This document shows positions 13,751 through 43,500 of a stretch of 64,000 bases of DNA, one piece after another. Position 1 is the stretch's first letter, and the number at the start of each line of letters is the position of its first letter. The DNA is from a virus, in IMG/VR virus record IMGVR_UViG_3300005471_000012, positions 27,149 through 91,148 of that record; one strand, written 5' to 3'. Under the pieces are notes generated by a model. That model did no database searches, had not been told where the DNA came from, and worked only from the letters and a program-made list of their open reading frames with translations. The translations under genes and the position numbers were made by a program.

Positions 13751-14037
13751 GACCGCACCGGCCCGTCAATGTCGTAGCCGAGCGCGGGGAACCACTCCGT
13801 CAGGATGTCCACCACGTCACCGCCCGGCCACCCGCCGTCGTTGCGCGCCTCCATGCTGCGAATGCGCGCCAGGAGATCGGTGACCTCGGGCGCCCGCTCC
13901 TGCACGGGCGCCCTGGCGGCCTCCTCGGCGAGCATGACCGCGATCTCCCGCACGCTCATGTCGTCACGGGACAGCGCCTCACCGAGCAGCCCCTTGAAGC
14001 GGTCAGCCAGGTTCTTCGGCCCTTTTTGTCGTGGCAT
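13747..14037 (-). CDS. hypothetical protein
   Basis: RBS; GTGA coupling. Confidence 0.6.
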   Translation of the reverse strand: MPRQKGPKNLADRFKGLLGEALSRDDMSVREIAVMLAEEAARAPVQERAPEVTDLLARIRSMEARNDGGWPGGDVVDILTEWFPALGYDIDGPVRS

Positions 14038-14085
14038 CGTCCTGATTCCCTTCTCTCGCTTGCCGTCAGCCCGAGCGTGGCGCGC

Positions 14086-14475
14086 TCAGCCGCGGGCCCA
14101 GTAGGTAACCCCGCCGAAATCGACGCTCGCGTAGTCCTGCTTGAGCGCATCGGCGTACGCCTGCCAGTCGACATAGGCGGACACGGAGCCTTCGTCCCGG
14201 CAGTCCCCGGTGTCGTCGGCCAGGTCCCGGGCGTAGTCCCCGAAATGCGAGTCGCGGATCAGGGTGACGCTGCCCGGCCAGGACAGCAGGCCGCTGCCTG
14301 CCAGGCCCCGGGCGTCGTCGCGCAACTCGCGCAGCGCGGCTAGTTCTTCCGCGTCCCAGTCCTCAAGGTCGTTGCCATGCCGCCGGAGTCCTTTCTGCGT
14401 GGTCTCCAGGTCGGCGATCCGTGCGTCAACGTCGGTGGCGTTAATGAAGTCCTCGCCGTTGTCGATCGCATCCAC
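14086..14475 (-). CDS. acidic ArdA-like antirestriction candidate
   Basis: Very Asp/Glu-rich; F.DYARDLADD...YVDWQAYADAL..DY resembles the ArdA C-terminal motif. Confidence 0.5.
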   Translation of the reverse strand: MDAIDNGEDFINATDVDARIADLETTQKGLRRHGNDLEDWDAEELAALRELRDDARGLAGSGLLSWPGSVTLIRDSHFGDYARDLADDTGDCRDEGSVSAYVDWQAYADALKQDYASVDFGGVTYWARG

Positions 14476-14561
14476 GTCCTTGCTCCCTTCCTTCGGTGGT
14501 CCTAGCGTGCATCCCAGCCCTGACGTGACCTGCTGACAGCGCCTCGCCGGCTGGGGGCGCG

Positions 14562-15008
14562 CTAGCGCCTTGACGCGATATGCCCGTCCAGGTCGGCGAG
14601 CAGCTGATTGCCGGCGCTGACCGCCTCGCGGAGCACGGCGAGAGCGGCGTCCGCGCCCCGCCCGGGCTCCTGGCCGCCGAGGTGCCGGATCTTGGAGTAG
14701 TAGGTGAACAGCTTGAGGCTCCCCGGCCCGTCCAGGTAAACCAGCCACGTGTAGCCGATCTCGCCTTCGCTGTCGTCGTCGTAGTCGAAAGCGATCTCGC
14801 CCGGCCCGGTGATCAGCCCGCTCGCCTTGGCCCCGGCGACGATGTCGTACGTCGTCGCCCCGCCGTCGTCCTCGTGCGGGTCATAGCTCGCGCTCAGTTC
14901 CAGCTCGGGTGCCTGGCTGGTCTCACCCGCGGACCGCGGCTCGAACTGCGCTACGGCACGGGCAAGCCATGCGGCGGCGCGCTTCTCGTCTAGCGTGAAT
15001 TCCTGCAT
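14562..15008 (-). CDS. hypothetical acidic protein
   Basis: GGAGGA RBS. Confidence 0.65.
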   Translation of the reverse strand: MQEFTLDEKRAAAWLARAVAQFEPRSAGETSQAPELELSASYDPHEDDGGATTYDIVAGAKASGLITGPGEIAFDYDDDSEGEIGYTWLVYLDGPGSLKLFTYYSKIRHLGGQEPGRGADAALAVLREAVSAGNQLLADLDGHIASRR

Positions 15009-15022
15009 TGCGGTGATCCTCC

Positions 15023-15487
15023 CTAGCGCTTGCGCTCAGCGCGCTTGATTGCCTGCCCGGCCGCCTTGAGGTCCGCGGCGAGCGCGGGCAGTTTCGCCGC
15101 CATGTCCGCCCGCGCTTCGGCGATCATCTCTGGCACCGGGTAGCCGGGGTCATCGTCAGGCATCCCGGCGATCATGTAATCCAGGTCGATCATGCGGATG
15201 CCGGTAACGTTGTCGTCCTCATCGGTCAGGGTGACCCGGCCGTGCTCCACCCCGCCGAGCACCTGACGGAAGCGGTCAAGGTCCAGCCCGGCCAGCCGCG
15301 GCGTCACGACAACGATCACGTACTCCCAGTCGCCGGCCCTGAACGCGGCCACCTGGGCCGGGGTGTAGCCGTCGCCTTCGGGCTCGCCCATCGCGTTCAG
15401 CGACTCGTCGGGCTCAAGCTGGACATGCCAGGTCAGTCCGGGCACGTCCTTGTCAGGTATGACCTTGCTCTTGATCACGTACGTCAC
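15023..15487 (-). CDS. hypothetical protein
   Basis: AF.AGDW.YV.VVV motif; GGAAGG RBS. Confidence 0.65.
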   Translation of the reverse strand: MTYVIKSKVIPDKDVPGLTWHVQLEPDESLNAMGEPEGDGYTPAQVAAFRAGDWEYVIVVVTPRLAGLDLDRFRQVLGGVEHGRVTLTDEDDNVTGIRMIDLDYMIAGMPDDDPGYPVPEMIAEARADMAAKLPALAADLKAAGQAIKRAERKR

Positions 15488-15490
15488 GGG

Positions 15491-16096
15491 TCAGCCTTCC
15501 TCGCGTAGCTCGCCGGTCACGTGCAGCGCCCGGCTCCTGGTAACGAATGCGTCGTCGTCACTTTCCGGCCAGCCGAGATAAGTGCCGTCCGTGTCGTGAT
15601 CGCACTCGTGCCACTGGTAGCGGTCCGGGTGTACGGCGACGCGGCGCAACATGAATGTCCAGTCAGCCCGCCATCCGGCTGTACCGAAGTCCGCTTGCCC
15701 GCGGTGCGGGGCATCCAGCCACGCGGGGTCAACCTCAATTACGGTGTAGACCAGCACGCCATCCTCGCGCCGGGCGAAGATCAGCCAGTCGTCGGCGCCG
15801 AGCACCCGGAGGATCGCGGGCGGCATCAGGCCAGCGGGGATCGTGTCGGCCCGCACGTCGTAGAAGCTGTCACCGTAGAACGGCAGGCAGCCGTCAGGCT
15901 CGCCCGCTGAGCTGCTCACAGCCGCCCGGCGGCCATGACGCTCGCCGGGCTTGTCCAGCCACCGCGTGATCGCGTAGCACCGGCCGCCCGTCTTCACGAC
16001 CATGCCCGGGGCGAGCTGTAGCGCGTCAACCGAGCGGTAGCGGATGCGGTCGACCTTGACGCCGAGCGCATCGTACTGGGCGGGCTTCCTGGTCAT
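15491..16096 (-). CDS. hypothetical protein
   Basis: ATGA coupling at MTRKPA. Confidence 0.6.
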   Translation of the reverse strand: MTRKPAQYDALGVKVDRIRYRSVDALQLAPGMVVKTGGRCYAITRWLDKPGERHGRRAAVSSSAGEPDGCLPFYGDSFYDVRADTIPAGLMPPAILRVLGADDWLIFARREDGVLVYTVIEVDPAWLDAPHRGQADFGTAGWRADWTFMLRRVAVHPDRYQWHECDHDTDGTYLGWPESDDDAFVTRSRALHVTGELREEG

Positions 16097-16551
16097 GACT
16101 GCCCCGCCTTCGCCGGCTCGTCGTTGTCGTGCGCGTTCGCCCACTTGCGGGCGGCGCTCTTGCTCGCGGTGTACTCGCTGACCCACGGGCACCGGGTGCA
16201 CCGGGCGTAGAACCCGGCGCGGTTAAGTACGATCTCGCAGTTGACCGTGGTGGCCACGACCGCGGAGCCAGGCCACGCCTGGCCCGCGGCATCCGCCGGC
16301 TCTTGCTCGTGCACGGTCAGCTTCACGGCGGCGATGTTCGCCCGGTAGCTTCCCCGGCGCGGCCGGTCATTGATCACGGGCATCCCCTCCAGCGTGATCC
16401 GCTGGCCCTTGACGGGTGCCTCCGTGAAAGACTTGAGGTAGGTCATGGTGACCGGCCCGGCGTCCCCGCGGTCGATCGTGACCGACAGGAACACGGAGCC
16501 GTGCGCAGTCGTGCGGCGCACCACCCGGGTAACCGTCCCGGTGATCGTCAT
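16093..16551 (-). CDS. putative OB-fold protein with a C-terminal CxxC..H Zn finger
   Basis: TITGTV...ITLEG beta pattern; CTRCPW...AH. Confidence 0.5.
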   Translation of the reverse strand: MTITGTVTRVVRRTTAHGSVFLSVTIDRGDAGPVTMTYLKSFTEAPVKGQRITLEGMPVINDRPRRGSYRANIAAVKLTVHEQEPADAAGQAWPGSAVVATTVNCEIVLNRAGFYARCTRCPWVSEYTASKSAARKWANAHDNDEPAKAGQS

Positions 16552-16778
16552 GTCTGCCGCCTCGCCCCGGCCTGCTTCTCGTAGAGCAGGCTGGCGACTT
16601 CATCAGCGCTGTCCATCGTCAGGCCAGCCGCATCGGTGATCAGTTCGATCAGCGCCCGGCTGTACTCGGGGTTGTCTTCGGCCGTACCGGGCCGCGCCAG
16701 CCCCGCGCTGTCAGGTCCCAGCTTGCGTGCCAGCCTGATCAGCTCACCGATGGTGACCCTGCGCGTAGTGTCGATCAT
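16548..16778 (-). CDS. hypothetical protein
   Basis: NPEY.RAL.ELI motif; downstream of promoter P3. Confidence 0.65.
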   Translation of the reverse strand: MIDTTRRVTIGELIRLARKLGPDSAGLARPGTAEDNPEYSRALIELITDAAGLTMDSADEVASLLYEKQAGARRQT

Positions 16779-16823
16779 GACCGTGTCCCATCCCTCTGGC
16801 TAGACTTCCGATCCCTACACGAC

Positions 16824-16852
16824 ACGATACGCCATTAGGCGAAACGTGTCTA
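16824..16852 (-). promoter_or_regulatory. promoter P3
   Basis: TAGACA-cgtttcgcctaatggcg-TATCGT. Confidence 0.7.
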
Positions 16853-16949
16853 CCTTTTAGCGTGCCGGATGCCTGCCGTGTTCACCGAACACACGCATGC
16901 TGAACGGCGGCGGCCTCGCGCGAGTGGGCTGGCGCCCGCGCGGGCAGCG

Positions 16950-16984
16950 GAAAGCCCCGCCCGGGGGCTGTCCGGGCGGGGCTC
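16950..16984 (-). terminator. putative terminator after the resolvase
   Basis: AGCCCCGCC stem pair followed by TTTC on the minus strand. Confidence 0.5.
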
Positions 16985-16999
16985 CTGGTGGCGTGGTGC

Positions 17000-17584
17000 C
17001 TAGCTGGCCGCCCTAGCCCGCGCTATCGTGCGGTACACGGTCGGCCGCGAGACGTCGAACAGCTCGGCCAGCTCGGTAATGTTGTGGCCGCCGGCCCGGT
17101 GCAGGGTGAGCAGGTGCGCTTGCCTGGTAGCGGACAGCTTGGGCGGCTTGCCCCTGAGGTGCCCTTTGGCCCGTGCGATGGCCATGCCCTCGCGGGTGCG
17201 CATGCGGAGCAGGTCGACCTCGAATTCGGCGAAGATCGCGAGTATGGCGAAGAACATCTTGCCCATCGGGTCGGCCGGGTCGTAGATGGTGCCGCCGAGT
17301 GAGAGTTTCACCCCGCGGGCCGTCAGGTCGTCGGCGATGTCCTGGAAATCGCGCACCGATCGCGCGAGCCGGTCCAGCTTGGGCGTCACGAGCGTGTCCC
17401 CGCTTCGCACGGCGGCTAGCGCTTTGCCTAGTTCCGGCCGGTCGCGGTTGGTGCCGGTTAGCCCGTGGTCCAGGTAGATGCGCCCGGGAGTCACCCCCAG
17501 GTCGCGGAGGGCCGCTTTCTGGGCGGCAAGATCCTGCTTTACGGTACTGCACCGGGCGTAGCCCGTAAGCGTGTCGTTTCCCAT
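17000..17584 (-). CDS. small serine recombinase (resolvase/invertase family) with C-terminal HTH
   Basis: GYARCST..Q catalytic Ser; RPEL; GDTLV..KLDRLARS; ELAELFDVSRPTVYR HTH. Confidence 0.95.
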   Translation of the reverse strand: MGNDTLTGYARCSTVKQDLAAQKAALRDLGVTPGRIYLDHGLTGTNRDRPELGKALAAVRSGDTLVTPKLDRLARSVRDFQDIADDLTARGVKLSLGGTIYDPADPMGKMFFAILAIFAEFEVDLLRMRTREGMAIARAKGHLRGKPPKLSATRQAHLLTLHRAGGHNITELAELFDVSRPTVYRTIARARAAS

Positions 17585-17589
17585 GCGGG

Positions 17590-17735
17590 GAGTGTACGGT
17601 AAGCGGGGCTGAGCGGTCAAATCCACCGTACACCCTATCTGAGACGGTCTTTCGGCAGGTCGGCACCTGACGGCAAGTGCATTTGGCGGCGTCCGCTGAA
17701 GGTTCCCCTACCGGACGCTTCGTAAACGGACATAC
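17590..17735. promoter_or_regulatory. putative res site
   Basis: Inverted repeat GTGTACGGT (17592-17600)/ACCGTACAC (17625-17633) plus further GTCCG/CGGAC half-sites immediately upstream of the resolvase. Confidence 0.55.
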
Positions 17736-17976
17736 CGGGCGCCCGTGCGCGGGGCTGAGCGGGCCGGTGCCGAGCCGGCGCCGGCAGGTACCCGGGCATA
17801 CGGAAAGCCCGCCGATCGACCGCGTACGGCCAGATCAGCGGGCTAGTTCCGGGCGGATGATCAGTTTCTGCCCGCGGTGCGCCGCATCTCGCGCGGCAGG
17901 GTGAGCGACACGAGCCACACGACAGGCCACATGGCCGCGCAGAATGCGGCCAGCAGCCGGCCCGGCTTGTCCGGGC

Positions 17977-18279
17977 TCACGCTTCGGCGCTCTTGGCGAA
18001 CCGCGCGGCCAGCCATGCCGTGTCCGCCTGGGCGAGCTGCGACCAGGCTAGGTAATCGGCGGGGTCGCCGGTAGCCTGCCAGCGGAGAAACATGGCGTGC
18101 TCGGCGTGGCGGGCCCTGATCGAGTCGGCCAGCAGGTTACGGGCCTGCTTTCGCGAGATGCGCCGGCGTCCGATGTACGGCCGTGCGGTCGCCTCCCGGG
18201 CGGCGTCGCCGGCAGGCGCGTATGCTTGGGCGTGGCGCCCGCGGCGGCCTGCGATCACCGGGCTTGGGCTGGTGGTCAT
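17977..18279 (-). CDS. hypothetical protein
   Basis: GAAAGGA RBS before MTTSP. Confidence 0.5.
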   Translation of the reverse strand: MTTSPSPVIAGRRGRHAQAYAPAGDAAREATARPYIGRRRISRKQARNLLADSIRARHAEHAMFLRWQATGDPADYLAWSQLAQADTAWLAARFAKSAEA

Positions 18280-18377
18280 GGGTCTGGTCCTTTCATCCTT
18301 GGCTAGGATTCCGATCGGCCGGCCTGGCCGTCGCGGCGCCGTCCCGGCAGGACCGGGGCGGCACCGTGACAGCCCGC

Positions 18378-18629
18378 CTAGCGGCTGAGCCGCTTGTCGC
18401 GCTGCTCGTTGTTCTCGCACCGCCAGATGTGGCCGTCCGGGGTTGGCACCCGGACTAGCCGTTTCCCGACGTCGCCGGCCTGGACGTAGCCGATCACGTC
18501 GCCAACGGGGATCAGGCCCTCGGTCGTGCGGATGCGGAGCTTGCCGACGTCATCCGCCGTGATCGTGTAGAACACCCGCTCGGCAGGCCGGGGCTCGGCC
18601 TCGGGCTCGGGCTTGAATATTTCCCGCAT
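18378..18629 (-). CDS. hypothetical protein with an internal repeat (DDVGK/GDVGK)
   Basis: GGAAGGA RBS. Confidence 0.65.
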   Translation of the reverse strand: MREIFKPEPEAEPRPAERVFYTITADDVGKLRIRTTEGLIPVGDVIGYVQAGDVGKRLVRVPTPDGHIWRCENNEQRDKRLSR

Positions 18630-18676
18630 GGTCTCTCTGTCCTTCCGTGCCGTGGTGCGGTCGGGATGCCGGGCGG

Positions 18677-18862
18677 TTACCGGCTGTACTTGAGATAGTG
18701 GGCGGGCTTCTCGCCCGTGGTGACCTTGCGGATTGCCGCGTCAATCTCGGCGCGGTTCTCCTGAATGAACTTGCGCATCGACAGGCCCGACGACTGCCAC
18801 CAGTCGTAAAGCCCTTCATCGTTGTTAATCCAGCCCTCCCGGCTGTCGCCACCTCGCGGCAT
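18677..18862 (-). CDS. conserved small phage protein
   Basis: WI.NDEGLY.WW..S..SMR.FI.ENR.EID motif; GAAAGGA RBS. Confidence 0.7.
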   Translation of the reverse strand: MPRGGDSREGWINNDEGLYDWWQSSGLSMRKFIQENRAEIDAAIRKVTTGEKPAHYLKYSR

Positions 18863-18885
18863 CGCTGGCCGTCCTTTCACGCTGG

Positions 18886-18953
18886 CACCCTGCCAGTCAT
18901 CAGCGCGGGTAGGGTGAGGTTCCCGCGGACGCCGGGCGGGCCGGCGTTTCGGC
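18886..18953 (-). ncRNA. type II hammerhead ribozyme HH1
   Basis: GCC-GAAA-CGCCGG-loop-CCGGCG-UC/-CGCGGG-AACCUCACCCUA-CCCGCG-CUGAUGA-CU-GGC-AGGGUG; loop I CACCCU can pair with tail AGGGUG. Confidence 0.85.
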
Positions 18954-19484
18954 TTAGCGCCCGGGCAGGTAGCGCCTGACCATGTCAAGGAATCCGGCGG
19001 GCAGCTCCCGGACCAGCCACGCCGAGCCGTAGCGGTAGCCGGTGACCGGGCACGGCGGCGTTAGGTCCAGGCTCGGCACCGTGCGGCCGTAGCCGTCCGT
19101 TTCCATGACTGGCGCCACGTGATCGCAGCCGGCCGTCATGCCGTTCAGGTGCCATCCGGCCAGCTTGACTAGCGCGGTTGCCTTGCCGGCGTCGAATCCG
19201 GGCGCGTACCCGGTTAGCTCGGCCAGCGGTTCCACAGTCGCGCCGCCTGACACAATGTCGCGCCAGTCCGGGTGCCAGACTGCGGTTGTGATGGAGAAAT
19301 CCAGCGGCCGCCGCACTTTGCGATGGTCGGTCGTCTCGTATTCGTCGCGCCGGTCCAGGCGTTCCATCGTGACCGTCACGGTAACGCGGAGATTCCGCTT
19401 GTATCCGTAGCCGGTGCCGGGCACCGTGCCCACGTAGACATCCTCACGGCTGAGCGCAATCTCGCCGTTTAGCCCTCTGGTCAT
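18954..19484 (-). CDS. hypothetical protein
   Basis: WHLNGM.AGC.H...CPVTGY.YG.AWL motif; GAAAGGA RBS. Confidence 0.7.
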   Translation of the reverse strand: MTRGLNGEIALSREDVYVGTVPGTGYGYKRNLRVTVTVTMERLDRRDEYETTDHRKVRRPLDFSITTAVWHPDWRDIVSGGATVEPLAELTGYAPGFDAGKATALVKLAGWHLNGMTAGCDHVAPVMETDGYGRTVPSLDLTPPCPVTGYRYGSAWLVRELPAGFLDMVRRYLPGR

Positions 19485-19530
19485 TTCGTGATCCTTTCCC
19501 GTGCCTGTCTGGGCTGGCTGCCGCTAGCTG

Positions 19531-19713
19531 TTACCCGGCGCTCTCGGTGATGCCGTATTCGCCGATCGTGTTCCCGTTGCCGTCAAGGATCTTGCCTGAG
19601 CCGTGGCCGGCCCGGATGCGCCGCGAGACGTTAGCGACGTAATCCGCCACGGCATCGGGCCCCGATTCGGCCGCCTCGGCATTGTCCAGGTTCATCGTCA
19701 GAGTGAAGATCAT
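19531..19713 (-). CDS. conserved small phage protein
   Basis: F.L.M..DNA.....G.I.D.NGNTIG.Y motif; GGAGG RBS. Confidence 0.7.
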   Translation of the reverse strand: MIFTLTMNLDNAEAAESGPDAVADYVANVSRRIRAGHGSGKILDGNGNTIGEYGITESAG

Positions 19714-19735
19714 TTTCGTCCGGCCTCCGGTCGTT

Positions 19736-19800
19736 TGCCCTGCCTTCGTCAGTGCCAGGCGGGCAGTCCTGGCAGACACCCGCGCGGCGGGTGTTTCGGC
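19736..19800 (-). ncRNA. type II hammerhead ribozyme HH2
   Basis: GCC-GAAA-CACCCG-loop-CGGGUG-UC/-UGCCAGG-ACUGCCCG-CCUGGCA-CUGACGA-A-GGC-A-GGGCA; loop I UGCCC can pair with tail GGGCA. Confidence 0.88.
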
Positions 19801-20100
19801 TCAGCCCTCGGCCGGGAAGCAGTCCGCATAGGTGAATTCGGAAGCCTCGGACTTCCACGGAATGTCTATCGTGTCGTCGCCGGACTCGATTGAGGCTTCG
19901 AAGTCGGTCACGTTTGAGAAGTCGCCGGCGTGCGTGTCAAGCCACGCCTGCACCGATTCGCGCGTGATCTTGCCATCGCCGTGCTGGCGCACGTTGTCAA
20001 CGTCATGCCCGCTTAGCTCGTACGTCTGGGCAGCGGTAACGCTCGCCATCCATATGGTCCCGATCACCCGGATAACCGACTTGCGGACCGTGTAGCGCAT
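19801..20100 (-). CDS. hypothetical protein
   Basis: GGAAGG RBS before MRYTV. Confidence 0.65.
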   Translation of the reverse strand: MRYTVRKSVIRVIGTIWMASVTAAQTYELSGHDVDNVRQHGDGKITRESVQAWLDTHAGDFSNVTDFEASIESGDDTIDIPWKSEASEFTYADCFPAEG

Positions 20101-20169
20101 CGTCTTGCCTTCCGTTCGGTTGCCGCTAGAAACTCCGCACCGCGCGCCGTGGCGCGCGATACGCAACCG

Positions 20170-20592
20170 CTAGGGCGTGCTGTCCTCTGCGGCGAACATT
20201 CCAAGCCGCTCATACTCGGCGGCCAGCCATTCCGCCTCGGCCGCGCTGTACTCCGCCTCGCGGGAAGAGTCGCCTGCATACTCGGAAGCCTCGCCGCGCA
20301 ATGCGAACGACTCGCCAGCGGCGGACAGGAACGATGCGAGCGCCCGTGCCATCTCGGCGTGACCGGCGGGCCGGCCCTGGGGTGACCTGAGGTCGGACCC
20401 TTCGAGCACTGTCCGCCCGTCGGCCACGACCAGGTAATCCCATCCGTTGCCGGCGTACGCCTTGCCTACGGTGCCGCCACCGTGCGCCGACAGGTAGAGC
20501 GAGATCTCGCCGGCGCCGGCCATGATCGGCGGTACCTCTACCGCGTACTCATGCTCGCTAGCGTCGTATCCGTAGATTTGCTGTCCGGTCAT
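20170..20592 (-). CDS. hypothetical protein
   Basis: GCAACGGAGG leader; GGGTVG.AY.G.W.Y motif. Confidence 0.65.
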   Translation of the reverse strand: MTGQQIYGYDASEHEYAVEVPPIMAGAGEISLYLSAHGGGTVGKAYAGNGWDYLVVADGRTVLEGSDLRSPQGRPAGHAEMARALASFLSAAGESFALRGEASEYAGDSSREAEYSAAEAEWLAAEYERLGMFAAEDSTP

Positions 20593-20622
20593 GACATCCT
20601 CCGTTGCTCTGCCTATATCGCC

Positions 20623-20651
20623 ATGATACACGGTTAGGCGAATGGCGTCTA
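20623..20651 (-). promoter_or_regulatory. promoter P4
   Basis: TAGACG-ccattcgcctaaccgtg-TATCAT. Confidence 0.7.
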
Positions 20652-20843
20652 GTTGTTAGGCGTGGTGACCAGCCATCGCGCGGCATCGTCGCGCGTGACC
20701 TCATGTAGCCGGCTGTTGCCGTCCGTCACTGTGAGGCGCCGGCCGTGCGCATGCACCGCGGCAACAGTGACAGGCCCGTGAGCTGCCGTCTCGACAGTCG
20801 CGCCTATCGCCGGCTGCCGGACGCGGCGGGTACGTGCTGCCAT
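20649..20843 (-). CDS. hypothetical small beta protein
   Basis: CGGAG RBS. Confidence 0.55.
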   Translation of the reverse strand: MAARTRRVRQPAIGATVETAAHGPVTVAAVHAHGRRLTVTDGNSRLHEVTRDDAARWLVTTPNN

Positions 20844-20902
20844 GCTGATCACTCCGTTTCGCTGGTCTCGAACGGGCCGGACTGTCCGGCCGGCCCGGTA
20901 GC

Positions 20903-21208
20903 TCAGCCGCGCGGCTGGATCGCGGCGTGATTCTTCCGGTAGGTGAACGCGCGGAAACGCACGATCGGCGGATCATCATCTGTCGCGACAGATGAGCCGG
21001 ACACGGTCTCAACTGACACGTACCCGGTAACAGTCTTGCCGTGCACCTCCACTGCGGCGGGAACACTAAAATACGTGTCCGCCGTTGCCGCTATGCGCTT
21101 GAGCGCGCGAACCTTACCGTCAGCGCATTCCGCCCGCCCGCCCGTGAAAACATCCCACATGCCGCCGGTAGTGAGACTTGTACCGTTCGCATACTGCCTG
21201 ATTCCCAT
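20903..21208 (-). CDS. conserved phage hypothetical protein
   Basis: C.DGK.R.....ADT.FSVPA.V...GKTV.GY motif; GGAGG RBS. Confidence 0.7.
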   Translation of the reverse strand: MGIRQYANGTSLTTGGMWDVFTGGRAECADGKVRALKRIAATADTYFSVPAAVEVHGKTVTGYVSVETVSGSSVATDDDPPIVRFRAFTYRKNHAAIQPRG

Positions 21209-21283
21209 TGCCCTAACCTCCGGTTGCGTTGCCCGTAATGATCAGTCCGGCCACGTGCCAGCGTTCAGAACGCGGCCGGGAGC

Positions 21284-21550
21284 TCACGGCGAGACGGATG
21301 CGCTATCCGGCAGGTACTGACGTACGCGATTGATGAAAACGCGGTGCGCTTCGGCCTGGTCGGCGAAGATCTTTGCCGGCCACCTCGGGTCGGTTTCGTC
21401 GCCGTGTGCCGTGACGTTGCGAGAGCTGATCTGCACTAGCGCGCGGCCATCGGGATGCACCGCGTAAAAGATCCGCGCGGAACCTCCGCCAGTGTGATCC
21501 TCGAACACGCCAAGGATCTTGAATCCTTGTATCCGCTGGTATTGCTCCAC
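21284..21550 (-). CDS. hypothetical protein
   Basis: GCAACGGAGG leader. Confidence 0.65.
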   Translation of the reverse strand: MEQYQRIQGFKILGVFEDHTGGGSARIFYAVHPDGRALVQISSRNVTAHGDETDPRWPAKIFADQAEAHRVFINRVRQYLPDSASVSP

Positions 21551-21646
21551 TGCTCTGACCTCCGTTGCCCTGTACCTCGCACCGTACGGTCGGACGGTGC
21601 GCCATGGCCGGCGCCAGACTGGGGAGGCTGGCGCCCGCCATGATCA
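21551..21646 (-). repeat. two-hairpin leader element A, copy 1
   Basis: ~48 nt shared with 21977-22070 with 3 differences, plus a CATG-closed variable hairpin. Confidence 0.8.
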
Positions 21647-21976
21647 GCTTGTGATTTTCCAGAACGATACGGCGTGACGTTCGCCGCCGAGATTGCTGCC
21701 GCACACATCGCAGGCGGACCAGCTGAACGACTCTGTCTCGCAGTCGCACTCGCTGCCAGCCTCGCCGGCCGTCTGGCCGTCAAAGTCGTCCGTGCATGAG
21801 TGCTCGCTGCGGAGTAGCCCTAGCGTGATCCTGTAGCCGGCGTTGCGCGTGTCAATCTCTGCCTGCCAGGCGGTAACGTGCGCCGCGCTCCAATCGGCCG
21901 GCGTCTCGCCGTTTGCCAGCAAAAACAGGCAGTCCGTGCACGCCCAACCGCTGCACGTGTACTCATCTGTTGCCAT
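21644..21976 (-). CDS. Cys-rich protein (CxDC...FSW..CD.CG..L.G.RH)
   Basis: GCAACGGAGG leader; Zn-binding motifs. Confidence 0.7.
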   Translation of the reverse strand: MATDEYTCSGWACTDCLFLLANGETPADWSAAHVTAWQAEIDTRNAGYRITLGLLRSEHSCTDDFDGQTAGEAGSECDCETESFSWSACDVCGSNLGGERHAVSFWKITS

Positions 21977-22070
21977 TGCCTTACCTCCGTTGCCCTGCAC
22001 TCGCACCGTACGGTCGCACGGTGCGCCATGAAGCGCGGCAGGCCTGCCGGACTGTCACGCAACATGATCA
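21977..22070 (-). repeat. two-hairpin leader element A, copy 2
   Basis: Matches copy 1 at 21551-21646. Confidence 0.8.
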
Positions 22071-22073
22071 GCG

Positions 22074-22358
22074 TTAGGCGTTCGGGTTGGGGCCCGTCCG
22101 CCATGCGTAGGCCGGCGAGATACGGCCAATGCCGGCCCGGTAGTGATGCTTGGAACGCGGCACGATGCGAGCGGCATAGTTGCCGGCGATGACCTCGCCG
22201 CGCCGGTAGGCACCGCGCGTTGCCGTGACCTTAACGGTGATACTGCCGGACAGTTCGTGTCCGGCAGCTCCGGCAACTACCTCGGTAACCTTTACCGGCA
22301 CCATGCCGTTACGCATCGTGTCGATATACGCCAACTCGCCTGCATAGTGGTCAGTCAT
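22074..22358 (-). CDS. hypothetical protein
   Basis: GCAACGGAGG leader; VTATRGAY.RGE motif. Confidence 0.7.
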   Translation of the reverse strand: MTDHYAGELAYIDTMRNGMVPVKVTEVVAGAAGHELSGSITVKVTATRGAYRRGEVIAGNYAARIVPRSKHHYRAGIGRISPAYAWRTGPNPNA

Positions 22359-22425
22359 TGCCCTACCTCCGTTGCGTTGCCGTATCGATCACGGCCGGCA
22401 CGTGCGAGACGTGCCGGCGAGTCCG

Positions 22426-22725
22426 CTACGCCGACTCTGAGCAGTCATCCTCAGCGCACGACGTAACCCACCAGGCGGTAGGTATGTCATGCGCCGAGTC
22501 GGGGTTCGTCGCCGTGTAGACCAGGAAGTCCTGACCTGCCGTTGCGCCGTGAATCGCAGTGTGCGCTTCGAGGTACTGTTCGTCCGTGCCGTCATCCCAT
22601 GCGCGCTCAAGATCCTCACGCAGAGCTGACAGCGCATCGGACCAATCCGCGTACGGGTAGCCCGCATCATCCGACTCGGGCAGGTAGCCTGCCACGTTGT
22701 GGCCAGCGTGCCAGTGCATCGCCAT
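22426..22725 (-). CDS. hypothetical acidic protein, first gene of the leftward array
   Basis: W.AG.N..GYLPE motif; GCAACGGAGG leader. Confidence 0.7.
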   Translation of the reverse strand: MAMHWHAGHNVAGYLPESDDAGYPYADWSDALSALREDLERAWDDGTDEQYLEAHTAIHGATAGQDFLVYTATNPDSAHDIPTAWWVTSCAEDDCSESA

Positions 22726-22757
22726 TGCCTTACCTCCGTTGCTTGCCGATACTCGGC

Positions 22758-22786
22758 ACGATACAGCATCATGCGAACGCTGTCTA
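22758..22786 (-). promoter_or_regulatory. promoter P5 at the head of the leftward array
   Basis: TAGACA-gcgttcgcatgatgctg-TATCGT. Confidence 0.75.
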
Positions 22787-23068
22787 GCTATCTGGCGAGG
22801 CAACGTGCGGACGCTGCCGGCCTGGCAGGCAGGTACGGATGCGCAGGGCACAAGGCTTGACCCCCCCCTCGGGGGGTCCCCAATCGCCCGAAGTCGCATA
22901 GGCGAATGCAGAAACCCCGGCTAGCCCGGTCCCTGACGAGCCTCGCGCGCGCGTGCGAGTGGCATTTCGTCCCGGTTTGATTCCCCCTGATTTTTTTGGT
23001 GGCAGTCAGCTGCCGCGCGAGTGGCGGCTGACTGCCGCTGAACGCCGACCTACCGGGGCGGGGGTTGC

Positions 23069-26000
23069 ATGCCGGCCGCCGAGATGACCGCCCGTACCCG
23101 CGAGATCATGCGCGCGCTGAAGTCAACGGCGCAGCCGGGCTCGCAGAGCGGCGGGTTCGGCGCCGTGACGGGCCCGTCTATCTCGCCCGGGCCGAGCCCG
23201 CTGGTCATGTCGTACGGCGAATGGACGTCCGGGCGGGCATCAGGCACCAGGTATTCCCTGCCCCGTGACCCTGAGACGTTCCTGTCGGGCATGTTCGGGC
23301 CGCTCGCGCCTATTCAGACCATCCCGATCGACGTGCCCCGCGAGGGCGAGGAACGGCCCGAGCCGCGGCGGTGGCAGTACCCGGTCGGCTGGAACATGCC
23401 GATGGGCATGCCCGGCACCGAGGGGATCGGGAAACTCGCCGATTTCCAGACGCTGCGCACGATCGCCGACCTCTACTCGGTGGCCAGGGCCTGCATCGAA
23501 CTGCGGAAAGCCGAGCTACGGGGGGTCGGCTGGGACATCGTGCTGACGAAGCAGGCGGCTAAGGCGCTGCGCGGCGACCACAAGGGGATGGCCGACTTCG
23601 CGAAGAGGCGCGCCGAGGCGGTGCGGTGGTGGCGGCGTCCCGACCACGATTACGCCGATTTCAGCACTTGGTTCGATGCGCTGCTGGAAGAGGTGTTCGT
23701 CACCGACGCGCTGGCGCTGTACGCGCAGCCGTCGCTCGGCACCCGCAAGGGACTGCTGGGCAGCAGCCTGGCCGCCCTCGACCTCATCGACGGGACGCTG
23801 ATCAAGCCGCTCGTTGACATCCGGGGCAGCAGGCCGCAGCCGCCGAATCCTAGCTACCAGCAGTTCTCCTACGGGGTTCCGCGCGTCGACCTGATGACGC
23901 TGCTCACCCACCATGAGACCCCCGATGAGCGGGAACTGGTCGCCGAGTACCGCGGCGACCAGCTGTTCTACCTGCCCTACAGCCAGCGGACGTGGACGCC
24001 GTACGGGATGGCGCCGATCGAGCGGGCGATCATCCCGATCATGGCGGGGCTGAACAAGCAGGCCTACCAGCTGAATTTCTTCCAGGAAGGCAGCATTCCG
24101 GGCCTGTTCGTGTCACCGGGCGACATGAACATGACCCCCAGCCAGATCCGCGAGCTGCAGGACGCCCTGAACGCGCTGGCGGGGGACCAGTCGTGGAAAC
24201 ACAAGATCATCGTGCTGCCGGGCGGCAGCAAGGTTGACCCGCAGAAGCCCGCGGCGCTCGCCGACCAGTTCGACGACGTGATCATGGCGCAGACCTGCAT
24301 GGCCTTCGGGGTCATGCCGATGGAGCTGGGCATTTCGCCGCAGGTCAGTTCAAGTCAGTCATCTGCGGCAGCTAACCAGATGGCCAAAGCCAGCCAGGAC
24401 ATCCAGGAACGCAAGTCAACCGTCCCGCTGCTGCTGTGGCTCAAGACCGCGATCTTCGACCGGATCCTGCAGGGCGTCTGCGGCCAGGCAGACATGGAAT
24501 GGCAGTTCGAGGGCCTCGAAGAGGACGAGGACGCCGAGACGGTCACCAGCCTGCTGGTGCAGCAGGTCGGCACCGGCATGCGGTCGATCGACGAGGCCCG
24601 GCAGGAACTTGGCCTGGACCCGTGGAACCTGCCGGTCACCTCCGATCCGGGCTGGTCGACCGAGCGGACCGGGTTCGTGTCTTTCACGGCGACCGGGGCG
24701 TTCCCGACCGCGGGCGGCGCTTCGCAGGGCGACACGCAAACCGACAGCCAGTCTGGCTCGGTGGCGCTGCCTGCCGCCGATCCGCGGCAGGCGATCACCG
24801 CGCCGAAACCACCCGATGACGGCAAGCCGTCCACGCCGGCGCATTCCGCGGCGCATGCCACCCCCGACGCGACCCGGAGCAAGCCGGCATCCGGCAACGG
24901 CCGCGCCGGGAAAGCCGCGAGCCTCGGCCAGTGGCGAGCCCGCGACATCCCCGCGCATGTCATGGCGATCATGGCCGAGGACCTGGGCAAGGGGCTGACC
25001 GCCGATGAGGTGTGCGCCAGCGTCCGGCCGCTGCTCGCCGGCAGCAAGCCGGCGCTCCGCGAACTGGGCCTGATCCGCTCATGGCTGCGCAAGTCGCACA
25101 CGAATGTGACAACCCGGCACGGGCACGGCGACCAGACCCACGAGGTGTACGCCTACCTCGGGCGGCACTACCCGGCGTCGGTACTCGAATGGGTCAAGGA
25201 AGCCCGCTGGGACGAGCCGAGAAAAGTGGCACTGTCGAAAATCGACATGGCACGCCGTCCGGGTGGCGCCCGCGACGAGCAGAAAGTTGCCCTGATCGCC
25301 GCCGCGATCAGGGCAGGCGTGCACCTGCCCCCGGTCGTCCTGGTGAACGTGCCCGGCAAGAACCTGTACGAGATCGCCGACGGATGGCATCGCACCCTGG
25401 CCATCAAGCACGCAGGCGGCAAGACGGCACTGGCATGGGTCGGCAAAGCCGGCGCGAAAACCGGGCCCTGGGACGGCGAGATGAACCGGGCCAAGCTGAA
25501 CAAGGCCGCCGGGGGTGGTGCCGGCCCAAAAGCGGGTAACCCGGCCTGGGACCACGACCAGGTCCTGGCCGCCGAGTTCGCCCGTCAGCTGGCGCGTGGC
25601 CTGCAAGCCTCGGTGCACGCCGGGCCGTTCGCGCACGCGTGGCTGCAAGCCCGCCGGCAAGGCGCAAGCGCGCCGCAGGCCAGCCCAGCGGTCCGGGCGG
25701 CCGTCAGGCACGCTCTGGCGAGCGTGCTGTACGCCCTGTGGGCACGGGCCTGGGGCCTGGGCTGGCGGGCCGCGCTGACCCTGCTTGCCGCGCAGCTGCG
25801 TCGTTTGCTGACCGGTGACCCCGGCGTATCTGCCCGGGGGCTGCGGCAGTTGCTCTTGCAAGCCGAACAGCGCATCGGCGCGATGACGCAAACCCGCATC
25901 GGCCGCCTGGAAAGGCTGCTCGGCGAAACCCCGGAAAACATCAGCGCCGCTGAGCTGGCCTCGCTGATCGACGCCGAGCTCGGCTCGTTTGACGCGGCGC

Positions 26001-26239
26001 TGCTGGTTACCCAGACCGAGACGACATGGGCGGTCAGCGAAGCGATGGTCACCGCCTACCTTGACGCCGGGATCACGGAAGCGCGGTGGCAGACAGCCGA
26101 CGACGACGTCACCTGCCTCAGGTGCCTGGCCAACGAAGCGCAGGGCGCTCTGCCCGTCGGCGATCAGTACGCCAGCGGCGACACCAGCCCGCCGGCGCAC
26201 CCGAGGTGCAGGTGCGGACTACTGCCCGCTGGCAACTGA
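23069..26239 (+). CDS. portal protein fused to a ParB/Srx-like domain and a MuF-type head morphogenesis domain
   Basis: Portal motifs YGMAPIE, FFQEGSIP, CMAFGVMP.ELG, SIDEARQELGLDP; PPVVLV..YEIADGWHRTLA; RWQT..D..TC..C...PPAHPRCRC. Confidence 0.85.
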   Translation: MPAAEMTARTREIMRALKSTAQPGSQSGGFGAVTGPSISPGPSPLVMSYGEWTSGRASGTRYSLPRDPETFLSGMFGPLAPIQTIPIDVPREGEERPEPRRWQYPVGWNMPMGMPGTEGIGKLADFQTLRTIADLYSVARACIELRKAELRGVGWDIVLTKQAAKALRGDHKGMADFAKRRAEAVRWWRRPDHDYADFSTWFDALLEEVFVTDALALYAQPSLGTRKGLLGSSLAALDLIDGTLIKPLVDIRGSRPQPPNPSYQQFSYGVPRVDLMTLLTHHETPDERELVAEYRGDQLFYLPYSQRTWTPYGMAPIERAIIPIMAGLNKQAYQLNFFQEGSIPGLFVSPGDMNMTPSQIRELQDALNALAGDQSWKHKIIVLPGGSKVDPQKPAALADQFDDVIMAQTCMAFGVMPMELGISPQVSSSQSSAAANQMAKASQDIQERKSTVPLLLWLKTAIFDRILQGVCGQADMEWQFEGLEEDEDAETVTSLLVQQVGTGMRSIDEARQELGLDPWNLPVTSDPGWSTERTGFVSFTATGAFPTAGGASQGDTQTDSQSGSVALPAADPRQAITAPKPPDDGKPSTPAHSAAHATPDATRSKPASGNGRAGKAASLGQWRARDIPAHVMAIMAEDLGKGLTADEVCASVRPLLAGSKPALRELGLIRSWLRKSHTNVTTRHGHGDQTHEVYAYLGRHYPASVLEWVKEARWDEPRKVALSKIDMARRPGGARDEQKVALIAAAIRAGVHLPPVVLVNVPGKNLYEIADGWHRTLAIKHAGGKTALAWVGKAGAKTGPWDGEMNRAKLNKAAGGGAGPKAGNPAWDHDQVLAAEFARQLARGLQASVHAGPFAHAWLQARRQGASAPQASPAVRAAVRHALASVLYALWARAWGLGWRAALTLLAAQLRRLLTGDPGVSARGLRQLLLQAEQRIGAMTQTRIGRLERLLGETPENISAAELASLIDAELGSFDAALLVTQTETTWAVSEAMVTAYLDAGITEARWQTADDDVTCLRCLANEAQGALPVGDQYASGDTSPPAHPRCRCGLLPAGN

Positions 26240-26718: not shown

Positions 26719-27504
26719 GTGTGCCTGAACTGCGGCTGCCTCATGCCCAATGCGGACCACGGTCATCCCGGCAATTTCCTGCTGGCCGAACTGGAGAAGG
26801 CCGCCGCGGCAGGCGGCACCAGCGCCGCTGAGGCAGCCTGGAACATTCCCCGCACCCTCACGGTGGCCACGTCGCCCGCGTGGCCACCTGAGCCGTATCA
26901 CGCGGCCTCGCGGCCCACCCTGGCATGGGACGTGGACGGCATCCTCGCGTTCACCGCCGAAGCGATCGTCGCCGCGCTGAACGCCCGGTTCGACACCGGC
27001 TACGACGCCATGTCGCAAGGATTCTTCCCCGGCACGTTCGTCTCCTCGGCGCTCCCGGCCGAGGAGGCCGCCTGGCTCGGCCAGCAACTCAGCTCAGGCG
27101 AGTTCGGCATCTACGGGGCGTGCGCACCAGACTGGCACGCGATCGACACGATGCTTGACGCGTCTGCGGCGGGCTACCCGACGGTGATCATCACAGAACG
27201 GCCCGCCGTGGTGGCCGACCAGACACGTTCGTGGCTGCGGTCGTGGACCGGGCAGCAACCGCCGCAAGTCGTAGCCGTCGGCCGCGGCAACAAGCCCGCC
27301 TACATGGGAGCCCGGTTCGGGCCCGGCAACCCCGCCATCCTGGTCGACGACAACCCGGCCGTCAGGATGACCATCGCCCGTGAGGGCATCGAGGTGTGGA
27401 CCCCGCAGCGGCCGTACACGCCGGCGCCCGGCCGGCCGCATGCGCGGACATTCGGCAACTGGCCGGCAGCACGGTACTGGCTCGGGATCAGCCCCGCCAG
27501 CTAA
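26719..27504 (+). CDS. HAD-superfamily phosphatase/nucleotidase-like protein with an N-terminal CxxCxC domain
   Basis: LAWDVDGILA (DxD motif I); IITER; K; ILVDDNP. Confidence 0.65.
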   Translation: MCLNCGCLMPNADHGHPGNFLLAELEKAAAAGGTSAAEAAWNIPRTLTVATSPAWPPEPYHAASRPTLAWDVDGILAFTAEAIVAALNARFDTGYDAMSQGFFPGTFVSSALPAEEAAWLGQQLSSGEFGIYGACAPDWHAIDTMLDASAAGYPTVIITERPAVVADQTRSWLRSWTGQQPPQVVAVGRGNKPAYMGARFGPGNPAILVDDNPAVRMTIAREGIEVWTPQRPYTPAPGRPHARTFGNWPAARYWLGISPAS

Positions 27505-43428: not shown

Positions 43429-43500
43429 CGCCCTCGGCGGGGATCGGACCCGCGACGCGCCGGTTAACAGCCGGCTGCTCTGCCGTTGGGCTACGAGGGC
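43429..43500 (-). tRNA. tRNA-Asn(GTT), partly non-canonical
   Basis: Acceptor GCCCTCG/CGAGGGC; anticodon arm GCCGG-CTGTTAA-CCGGC; T arm GCGGG-TCCGATC-CCCGC; D stem mismatch; no encoded CCA. Confidence 0.75.

Follow-up and report, generated by a model that had tools for sequence, protein, structure and literature searches.

A 68-nt motif on the minus strand of a phage DNA, here called HH1, is probably a genuine self-cleaving type II hammerhead ribozyme. Together with a second hammerhead upstream (HH2), it would release an RNA carrying two genes. This reading is drawn from sequence comparison, and its parts differ in strength. By descent and form HH1 is almost certainly a true hammerhead. Cleavage at a biologically useful rate can be predicted with less assurance, and is still likely. 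Hammerheads of this kind have been known in phages since 2011, and apart from a rare bulge of two bases in the core HH1 is ordinary.

The window referred to below is the whole stretch of 64,000 nucleotides that was analysed, positions 27,149 to 91,148 of the IMG/VR record IMGVR_UViG_3300005471_000012. All coordinates are those of the window, and the features are collected in Table 1.

Anatomy of the HH1 Motif

HH1 has the topology of a type II hammerhead. Stems I and III are capped by loops, and the short stem II is open to the flanking sequence. An earlier note on this DNA had described a core of CUGAUGA, GAAA and GUC, perfect 6-bp stems I and III, and an open 3-bp stem II of GCC and GGC. Direct reading of the minus strand finds all of these in place. 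The conserved core bases C3 U4 G5 A6 N7 G8 A9, G12 A13 A14, A15.1-U16.1 and H17 are present as a full set, and the A15.1-U16.1 pair extends stem III beyond its hairpin. The acceptance rule of Perreault et al. concerns the three pairs next to the core, at 10.1-11.1, 1.1-2.1 and 15.1-16.1. In HH1 these are G-C, C-G and A-U, and a CU bulge parts A9 from G10.1. The insertion of CU after A9 had been reported correctly. Both covariance model alignments described below show it as an insertion.

HH1 lies within the 91-nt spacer between a gene for a 176-aa protein (ORF176) and an ORF of 61 codons. The upstream TAA (18956-18954) adjoins the motif, so that the first base of stem II is the next base after the stop codon, just as the earlier note had it. 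The cleavage site that it predicted agrees with the hammerhead numbering read from the sequence, and falls 26 nt beyond the stop codon of ORF176. Its background statement also holds: pseudoknotted type II hammerheads in phage intergenic regions were described in 2011 (PMC3088659). Anatomy and intergenic position in a phage thus support the identification as a type II hammerhead, as far as sequence features can; it is the weight given to the identification that needs correcting.

Table 1. Features of HH1 and of the surrounding minus-strand genes (window coordinates).
Feature	Position	Strand	Basis or remark
HH1, complete type II hammerhead motif including pseudoknot tail	18886..18953	(-)	68 nt; direct reading, RF02276, model R1
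Stem II 5' strand GCC (11.3-11.1)	18951-18953	(-)	pairs with GGC 18892-18894
Core G12 A13 A14 (GAA); A15.1	18950-18948; 18947	(-)	reading, RF02276 and R1
Stem III hairpin: CGCCGG, loop CCCGC, CCGGCG	18946-18941, loop, 18935-18930	(-)	direct reading; family covariation
U16.1; C17	18929; 18928	(-)	direct reading
Predicted scissile bond, 3' of C17	18928/18927	(-)	hammerhead numbering from direct reading
Stem I: CGCGGG, 12-nt loop, CCCGCG	18927-18922, 18921-18910, 18909-18904	(-)	direct reading
Core C3-A9 CUGAUGA	18903-18897	(-)	reading, RF02276 and R1
Inserted CU, between A9 and G10.1	18896-18895	(-)	insertion in RF02276 and R1 alignments
Stem II 3' strand GGC (10.1-10.3)	18894-18892	(-)	direct reading
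Pseudoknot tail AGGGUG; partner CACCCU in loop I	18891-18886; 18916-18911	(-)	direct reading
Possible competing hairpin CUGGCA-GGG-UGCCAG	18882-18896	(-)	ViennaRNA
61-aa ORF downstream of HH1	18677-18862	(-)	GC3 signal in frame
ORF176, 176-aa conserved phage protein	18954-19484	(-)	99 homologues, alignment A1, GC3 frame
60-aa ORF between HH2 and ORF176	19531-19713	(-)	tblastn homologues; weak phrog_9027 match
HH2, type II hammerhead	19736-19800	(-)	RF02276 51 bits (19734-19801), R1 64.4 bits
Translation-initiation block copies	20598-20612, 21549-21573, 21974-21998, 22356-22380, 22723-22747		

Match to the Hammerhead Family

The earlier note had proposed a search with Infernal and the Rfam type II hammerhead model, and the outcome is divided. 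The model RF02276 aligns with HH1 from end to end, but the score is 32.8 bits, about 4 bits under the gathering score of 37 bits, which is an operational Rfam rule and not a biological criterion. The corresponding E values are 8.3e-5 (601 b), 0.0013 (9.1 kb) and 2.9e-6 (per genome). HH1 visibly departs from the model in three respects: 3 bases are inserted before stem II, loop I is longer, and the tail does not resemble the consensus.

For a second model, R1, pattern scans of IMG/VR supplied 49 other type II hammerheads of phages (alignment A2), with this genome excluded. Run over the whole window with filters off, it gives HH1 a score of 43.9 bits (E 7.7e-9) and HH2 a score of 64.4 bits. The best match in the window that is not a hammerhead reaches 16.6 bits, so that HH1 stands 27 bits above background. 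HH1 and HH2 are the only hammerheads in the whole 91-kb record, and a permissive Rfam search found no other ribozyme class in 14000-23100.

Scores under the Rfam cut-off are found in five of the seven hammerheads near relatives of ORF176, HH1 being counted. Even family members that lack an inserted base and have a GCC/GGC stem II of 3 bp are aligned by RF02276 using a one-base insertion or a non-canonical pair, and the two stem II pairs annotated in that model seem to omit G10.1-C11.1 as matched columns. The stem II annotation may contribute to the lower scores of the phage GCC/GGC subgroup.

Pseudoknot, Covariation, and Folding

Covariance models do not score a pseudoknot as pairs. The 6-bp pseudoknot between loop I and the 3' tail, CACCCU with AGGGUG, had been pointed out before and is present. 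It begins at the first base past stem II, and its duplex is worth -8.4 kcal/mol. For a random 12-nt loop of the window's composition, the chance of forming at least 6 bp with the real HH1 tail is about 1%.

When 148 distinct type II hammerheads of phages are aligned by model, the columns of stems I and III and of the pseudoknot covary strongly. Paired cells make up 93.5% in that alignment, compared with 67.8% after shuffling and 24-39% after sliding of the partners, and the stem II helix is paired in 99.8% of cells. The pseudoknot of HH1 sits in the same columns as the covarying pseudoknot of the family.

Without its pseudoknot the hammerhead fold of HH1 has an energy of -25.4 kcal/mol, and the best nested fold has -28.1 kcal/mol. 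The pseudoknot is therefore needed for the hammerhead fold to overtake the nested one. The nested minimum-energy fold of HH1 is not the hammerhead, and its folding z-score of -0.87 is not significant. Minimum-energy folding was rejected as a test of HH1, because the active fold depends on a pseudoknot and nested folding ignores pseudoknots.

A hairpin that could compete with the hammerhead was found in the course of folding. Of its six Watson-Crick pairs, two are formed by the inserted C and U, and the hairpin alone is worth -7.1 kcal/mol. It takes up the inserted CU, the 3' strand of stem II and the pseudoknot tail, with the next six bases UGCCAG. A fold with this hairpin and with stems I and III intact reaches -30.3 kcal/mol, against the -25.4 kcal/mol of the hammerhead without pseudoknot, and is about equal in stability to the hammerhead with it. 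According to the folding model, the hairpin could, hypothetically, act once those next six bases are transcribed. When HH2 is folded with its flank, the minimum-energy structure retains the hammerhead; for HH1 it does not.

A Second Hammerhead and the Genes Between

Analysis of GC3 by frame, together with reading, gives the gene order as 121-aa ORF, HH2, 60-aa ORF, ORF176, HH1 and 61-aa ORF. HH2 scores above the RF02276 cut-off with 51 bits. It has the same architecture as HH1, and its stems differ in sequence from those of HH1 with full compensation. A single extra A follows A9, the pseudoknot has 5 bp (UGCCC with GGGCA), and the cut is predicted at 19775|19774. The predicted cuts of HH2, which lies upstream, and of HH1 are 847 nt apart on the same strand.

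The two hammerheads are placed alike. The TGA (19803-19801) of the 121-aa ORF is directly followed by the first base of HH2, after which come a ribosome-binding site and the 60-aa ORF. HH1 is followed by an AAAGGA ribosome-binding site (18872-18877) and, 23 nt past its end, by the ATG of the 61-aa ORF, for which no family match was found. Each hammerhead thus has a stop codon directly before it, and a ribosome-binding site with an ORF of roughly 60 codons after it.

ORF176 belongs to a family of 99 homologues that is widespread in phages and has T51, H54, C120 and C145 as invariant residues; the closest homologues are 60-70% identical. Searches of Pfam, PHROG, PDB sequences and the Atlas gave no lead to its function. 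An AlphaFold model made with 46 sequences has a pLDDT of 95.3 and a pTM of 0.84. Foldseek found no PDB match to it at E <= 0.001, and the best VIA-align Z was 4.3 (weak WGR- or PH-like rows). From the model, ORF176 may have an undescribed fold.

Homologues of the 60-aa ORF were found by tblastn just upstream of ORF176 homologues at three other loci (L145 815-973, L160 1675-1833 and L021 2175-2333). Since the 60-aa ORF precedes ORF176 homologues in distant phages too, what the hammerheads bracket is a conserved two-gene module.

Conservation among Relatives

Profile scans for ORF176 relatives gave 169 loci (80 viral, 80 metagenomic and 9 genomic). Hammerheads are near the ORF176 relative in only 3 of the 169 (L006, L035 and L145), and none of them is an orthologue of HH1. 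One of the three is in a distant phage, L145, where a type II hammerhead (1558-1619) begins 3 nt past the TAA of the ORF176 homologue. In the closest ORF176 relative with downstream sequence, the stop codon and the next start codon overlap, leaving no spacer. The ribozymes are not conserved with the two-gene module. When IMG/VR was scanned with the single protein of ORF176 or of the 121-aa ORF, no relatives came up.

The start of HH1 at a stop codon is the norm for its family. Among 199 phage type II hammerheads (loci L171-L427), the upstream stop ends between -2 and +1 nt from stem II in 124. In 48 cases stem II follows the last base of the stop without a gap, and in 32 the stop includes the first G.

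Some phage contigs (L220, IMGVR_UViG_3300033112_000310; L330; L346) have very dense arrays of type II hammerheads: ten in 8.5 kb, eight in 4 kb and five in 2.3 kb.

The Two-Base Insertion

The site between A9 and G10.1 is known to accept an extra base. For instance, the CChMVd (+) hammerhead has an extra A there, and U works better than A, whereas C or G is strongly detrimental, according to the summary of De la Pena and Flores 2001 in PMC3705267. Hammerheads of Penelope-like elements conserve a base at the same site (PMC4209133), and one extra base is compatible with activity (PMC3705267; PMC4209133). Around the pseudoknot, insertions or deletions can cut rates by orders of magnitude (Perreault et al., PMC3088659). 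A limited literature search found no published description of a two-base insertion between A9 and G10.1.

Pattern scans of IMG/VR show how phage hammerheads use this site. Scans for no insertion and for a one-base insertion gave more than 110 stretches each, and among the matches listed a single inserted U is almost as frequent as no insertion. The single inserted base is U in 99 of 105 cases among the matches listed; the other insertions are UU, UA, AA, A and G. When IMG/VR was scanned completely for two inserted bases combined with a GCC/GGC stem II, 27 stretches came up, and about eight of these hold well-formed hammerheads (seven under a stricter stem filter). By these counts the two-base form is rare but recurrent.

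Seven phage hammerheads in IMG/VR other than HH1 carry two inserted bases (UU, UA or AA), and their cores, stems and pseudoknots are otherwise intact. Three of the copies are related, two in L185 and one in L197. They keep the 2-nt insertion and have a stem I changed by compensating substitutions, which argues that two-base variants are maintained. These copies sit in the same arrays as ordinary ones.

Apart from HH1, no hammerhead in the two phage sets examined (224 and 150) has CU, or any C, at this site, as judged from the matches listed. This sole occurrence of C is the main reason to doubt full activity of HH1. Since C is unseen elsewhere at the site and harmful in the viroid hammerhead, cutting by HH1 may, by analogy, be slow. 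The CU is probably a rare form of a tolerated insertion, with its bases accommodated in a flipped-out position, and the cost of the bulge is possibly a slower rate. Taken with the seven other natural cases, it indicates that more can be accommodated at the A9/G10.1 junction than the one extra base known from earlier descriptions. HH1 also offers a natural variant in which the cost of a C at this site could be measured.

Proposed Action and Alternative Readings

In the proposed mechanism, HH1 would fold as the polycistronic RNA emerges and would cut itself after C17 during transcription. The upstream product would keep its stop codon intact and would finish in the stem III hairpin, its 3' end carrying a 2',3'-cyclic phosphate. 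On the downstream side the RNA would start at the stem I hairpin with a 5'-OH, and the next ribosome-binding site would follow. HH2 and HH1 together would release an RNA of 847 nt (19774-18928) containing the module of the 60-aa ORF and ORF176. Stability and translation could then vary from one segment of the operon to another.

It is hardly credible that HH1 is a chance look-alike, or a structure with some other role such as a terminator or a pair of protein-binding hairpins. The region is very rich in G+C, and the folding energy of HH1 is usual for such a composition, as a look-alike would have it. However, the independent model R1 puts it 27 bits over background with an E value near 1e-8, the pseudoknot adds an independent event of about 1%, and a second hammerhead stands 847 nt away in the same context. 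A terminator is also opposed by the lack of a U-run and of any terminator-like site in 17500-23200. Another alternative, which accepts descent from hammerheads, is that HH1 is a crippled or dead copy. In this case the CU beside the metal-binding region at A9/G10.1 would abolish useful cleavage and leave two stable hairpins. Such a loss is unlikely, and has several points in its favour: C is absent as an inserted base from the other phage hammerheads sampled (among the matches listed), an extra C or G is strongly detrimental in the viroid hammerhead as PMC3705267 summarises it, the score is under the Rfam cut-off, and HH1 is kept in no related genome among the ORF176-relative loci. Perreault et al. 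(PMC3088659) likewise allow that some clustered hammerheads may be non-functional. Decay should nevertheless have struck other parts of the motif too, and the core, the stems and the 6-bp pseudoknot, which is in register, are all perfect. The seven natural two-base insertions also lie in intact motifs, three of them in related copies that have come through compensatory change.

The competing hairpin leads to a different alternative, in which HH1 is an active ribozyme that is tuned or gated. Pairing with UGCCAG would limit cleavage to a short window during transcription, or would slow it relative to HH2, and processing would run at a different rate at each end of the two-gene module. What speaks for gating is that the six-pair hairpin includes the inserted CU and gives a fold about as stable as the hammerhead with its pseudoknot, and that HH2 with its flank, unlike HH1, has the hammerhead as its minimum-energy fold. 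It is nonetheless improbable, since it rests on one sequence that has no relatives, a 6-bp hairpin is not unlikely by chance in sequence of 75% G+C, and inspection by eye showed no equivalent hairpin in the other two-base-insertion hammerheads looked at. A bolder extension of this reading is comparably doubtful. In it the CU would be no defect but a setting, which with UGCCAG makes HH1 slow or kinetically gated, so that the ends of the 847-nt RNA are cut at unequal rates; or else the excised RNA, with its 5'-OH and cyclic-phosphate ends, might be made circular by an RtcB-type ligase of the host. If either were true, a phage operon would provide a concrete case of a hammerhead used in a rate-tuned or product-directed way. 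The reading preferred here is still that HH1 cleaves itself and, with HH2, frees the two-gene RNA.

Relation to Known Systems

The family to which HH1 is compared is RF02276 of Rfam (clan CL00010; Perreault et al. 2011, PMC3088659). HH1 shares its core, its capped stems I and III, its short open stem II, its pseudoknot of at least 4 bp between loop I and the sequence 3' of stem II, and its intergenic position in phage operons. A loop I pseudoknot is typical of type II hammerheads, not universal. HH1 differs from the type in the CU after A9 and in a 12-nt loop I that is somewhat longer than the consensus.

Clustered hammerheads flanking genes have been described in prophages of Agrobacterium tumefaciens, Azorhizobium caulinodans and Clostridium scindens, and the flanked genes are not constant in identity (PMC3088659). 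HH2 and HH1 are similar to these clusters in lying close together on one strand and bracketing a short block of genes. Here too the flanked genes are not fixed, as seen from the 3 of 169 ORF176-relative loci that have hammerheads. Compared with the prophage clusters, the bracketed block is a conserved one, the 60-aa ORF with ORF176, and it is found in an uncultured contig that looks virulent or is unintegrated.

With regard to the insertion, HH1 resembles the hammerheads of CChMVd (+), of Penelope-like elements and of phages with an extra U. All have the same insertion site, G10.1-C11.1 pair and core bases. In contrast to them, HH1 inserts two bases, the first of which is C. A hammerhead with a pseudoknot has been solved, and in that structure the loop-to-tail pseudoknot, which HH1 has in common with it, replaces the loop-loop contact, and a pair of A9 with G12 stacks on G10.1-C11.1 (Zhan et al. 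2024, PMC11300833). There G10.1 directly follows A9, whereas HH1 must bulge two bases at that stacking step.

HH1 changes nothing in what is known about the ribozyme class. It is one more clean example for the long-standing question of what intergenic hammerheads do in phages. Because HH2 and HH1 bracket a conserved two-gene module, they form a compact test case for whether the ribozymes set the stability or the stoichiometry of the mRNA of this module.

Phage Record and Gene Array

The source record has a length of 91,148 b and is estimated to be 81% complete. A fusion gene for portal and minor head protein (23069-26239) marks the context as that of a phage, and no cultured phage has a portal more than 33% identical to the one encoded here. 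Among genomic relatives of ORF176 the best, in a Pseudonocardia MAG, shows 44% identity over part of the protein. Neither the portal nor the Pseudonocardia match suffices to name a host. The source is an uncultured tailed phage of high G+C, virulent-looking or present as an unintegrated contig, and HH1 belongs to an array of non-structural genes.

This array consists of small minus-strand genes. Promoter-like sites within it are found on the minus strand only, and 17500-23200 contains no terminator-like site. A small serine recombinase (Resolvase and HTH_7; 17000-17626, minus strand) is encoded 1.3 kb downstream of HH1, and the same strand has a tRNA gene at 43429-43500 (54.8 bits).

A 73-nt element occurs twice, at 21576-21648 and 22000-22072 as read on the minus strand, with 75% identity between the copies. 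It matches no Rfam family at E <= 5. It consists of two hairpins, one variable and rich in G+C and the second near-invariant, and is intergenic, as the hammerheads are. Structured RNAs adjoining hammerheads, such as this element, are possible ribozyme candidates. Small genes of the array are also preceded, in four or five copies, by a translation-initiation block that reads GCAACGGAGGTAAGGCAATG, with variants, on the minus strand.
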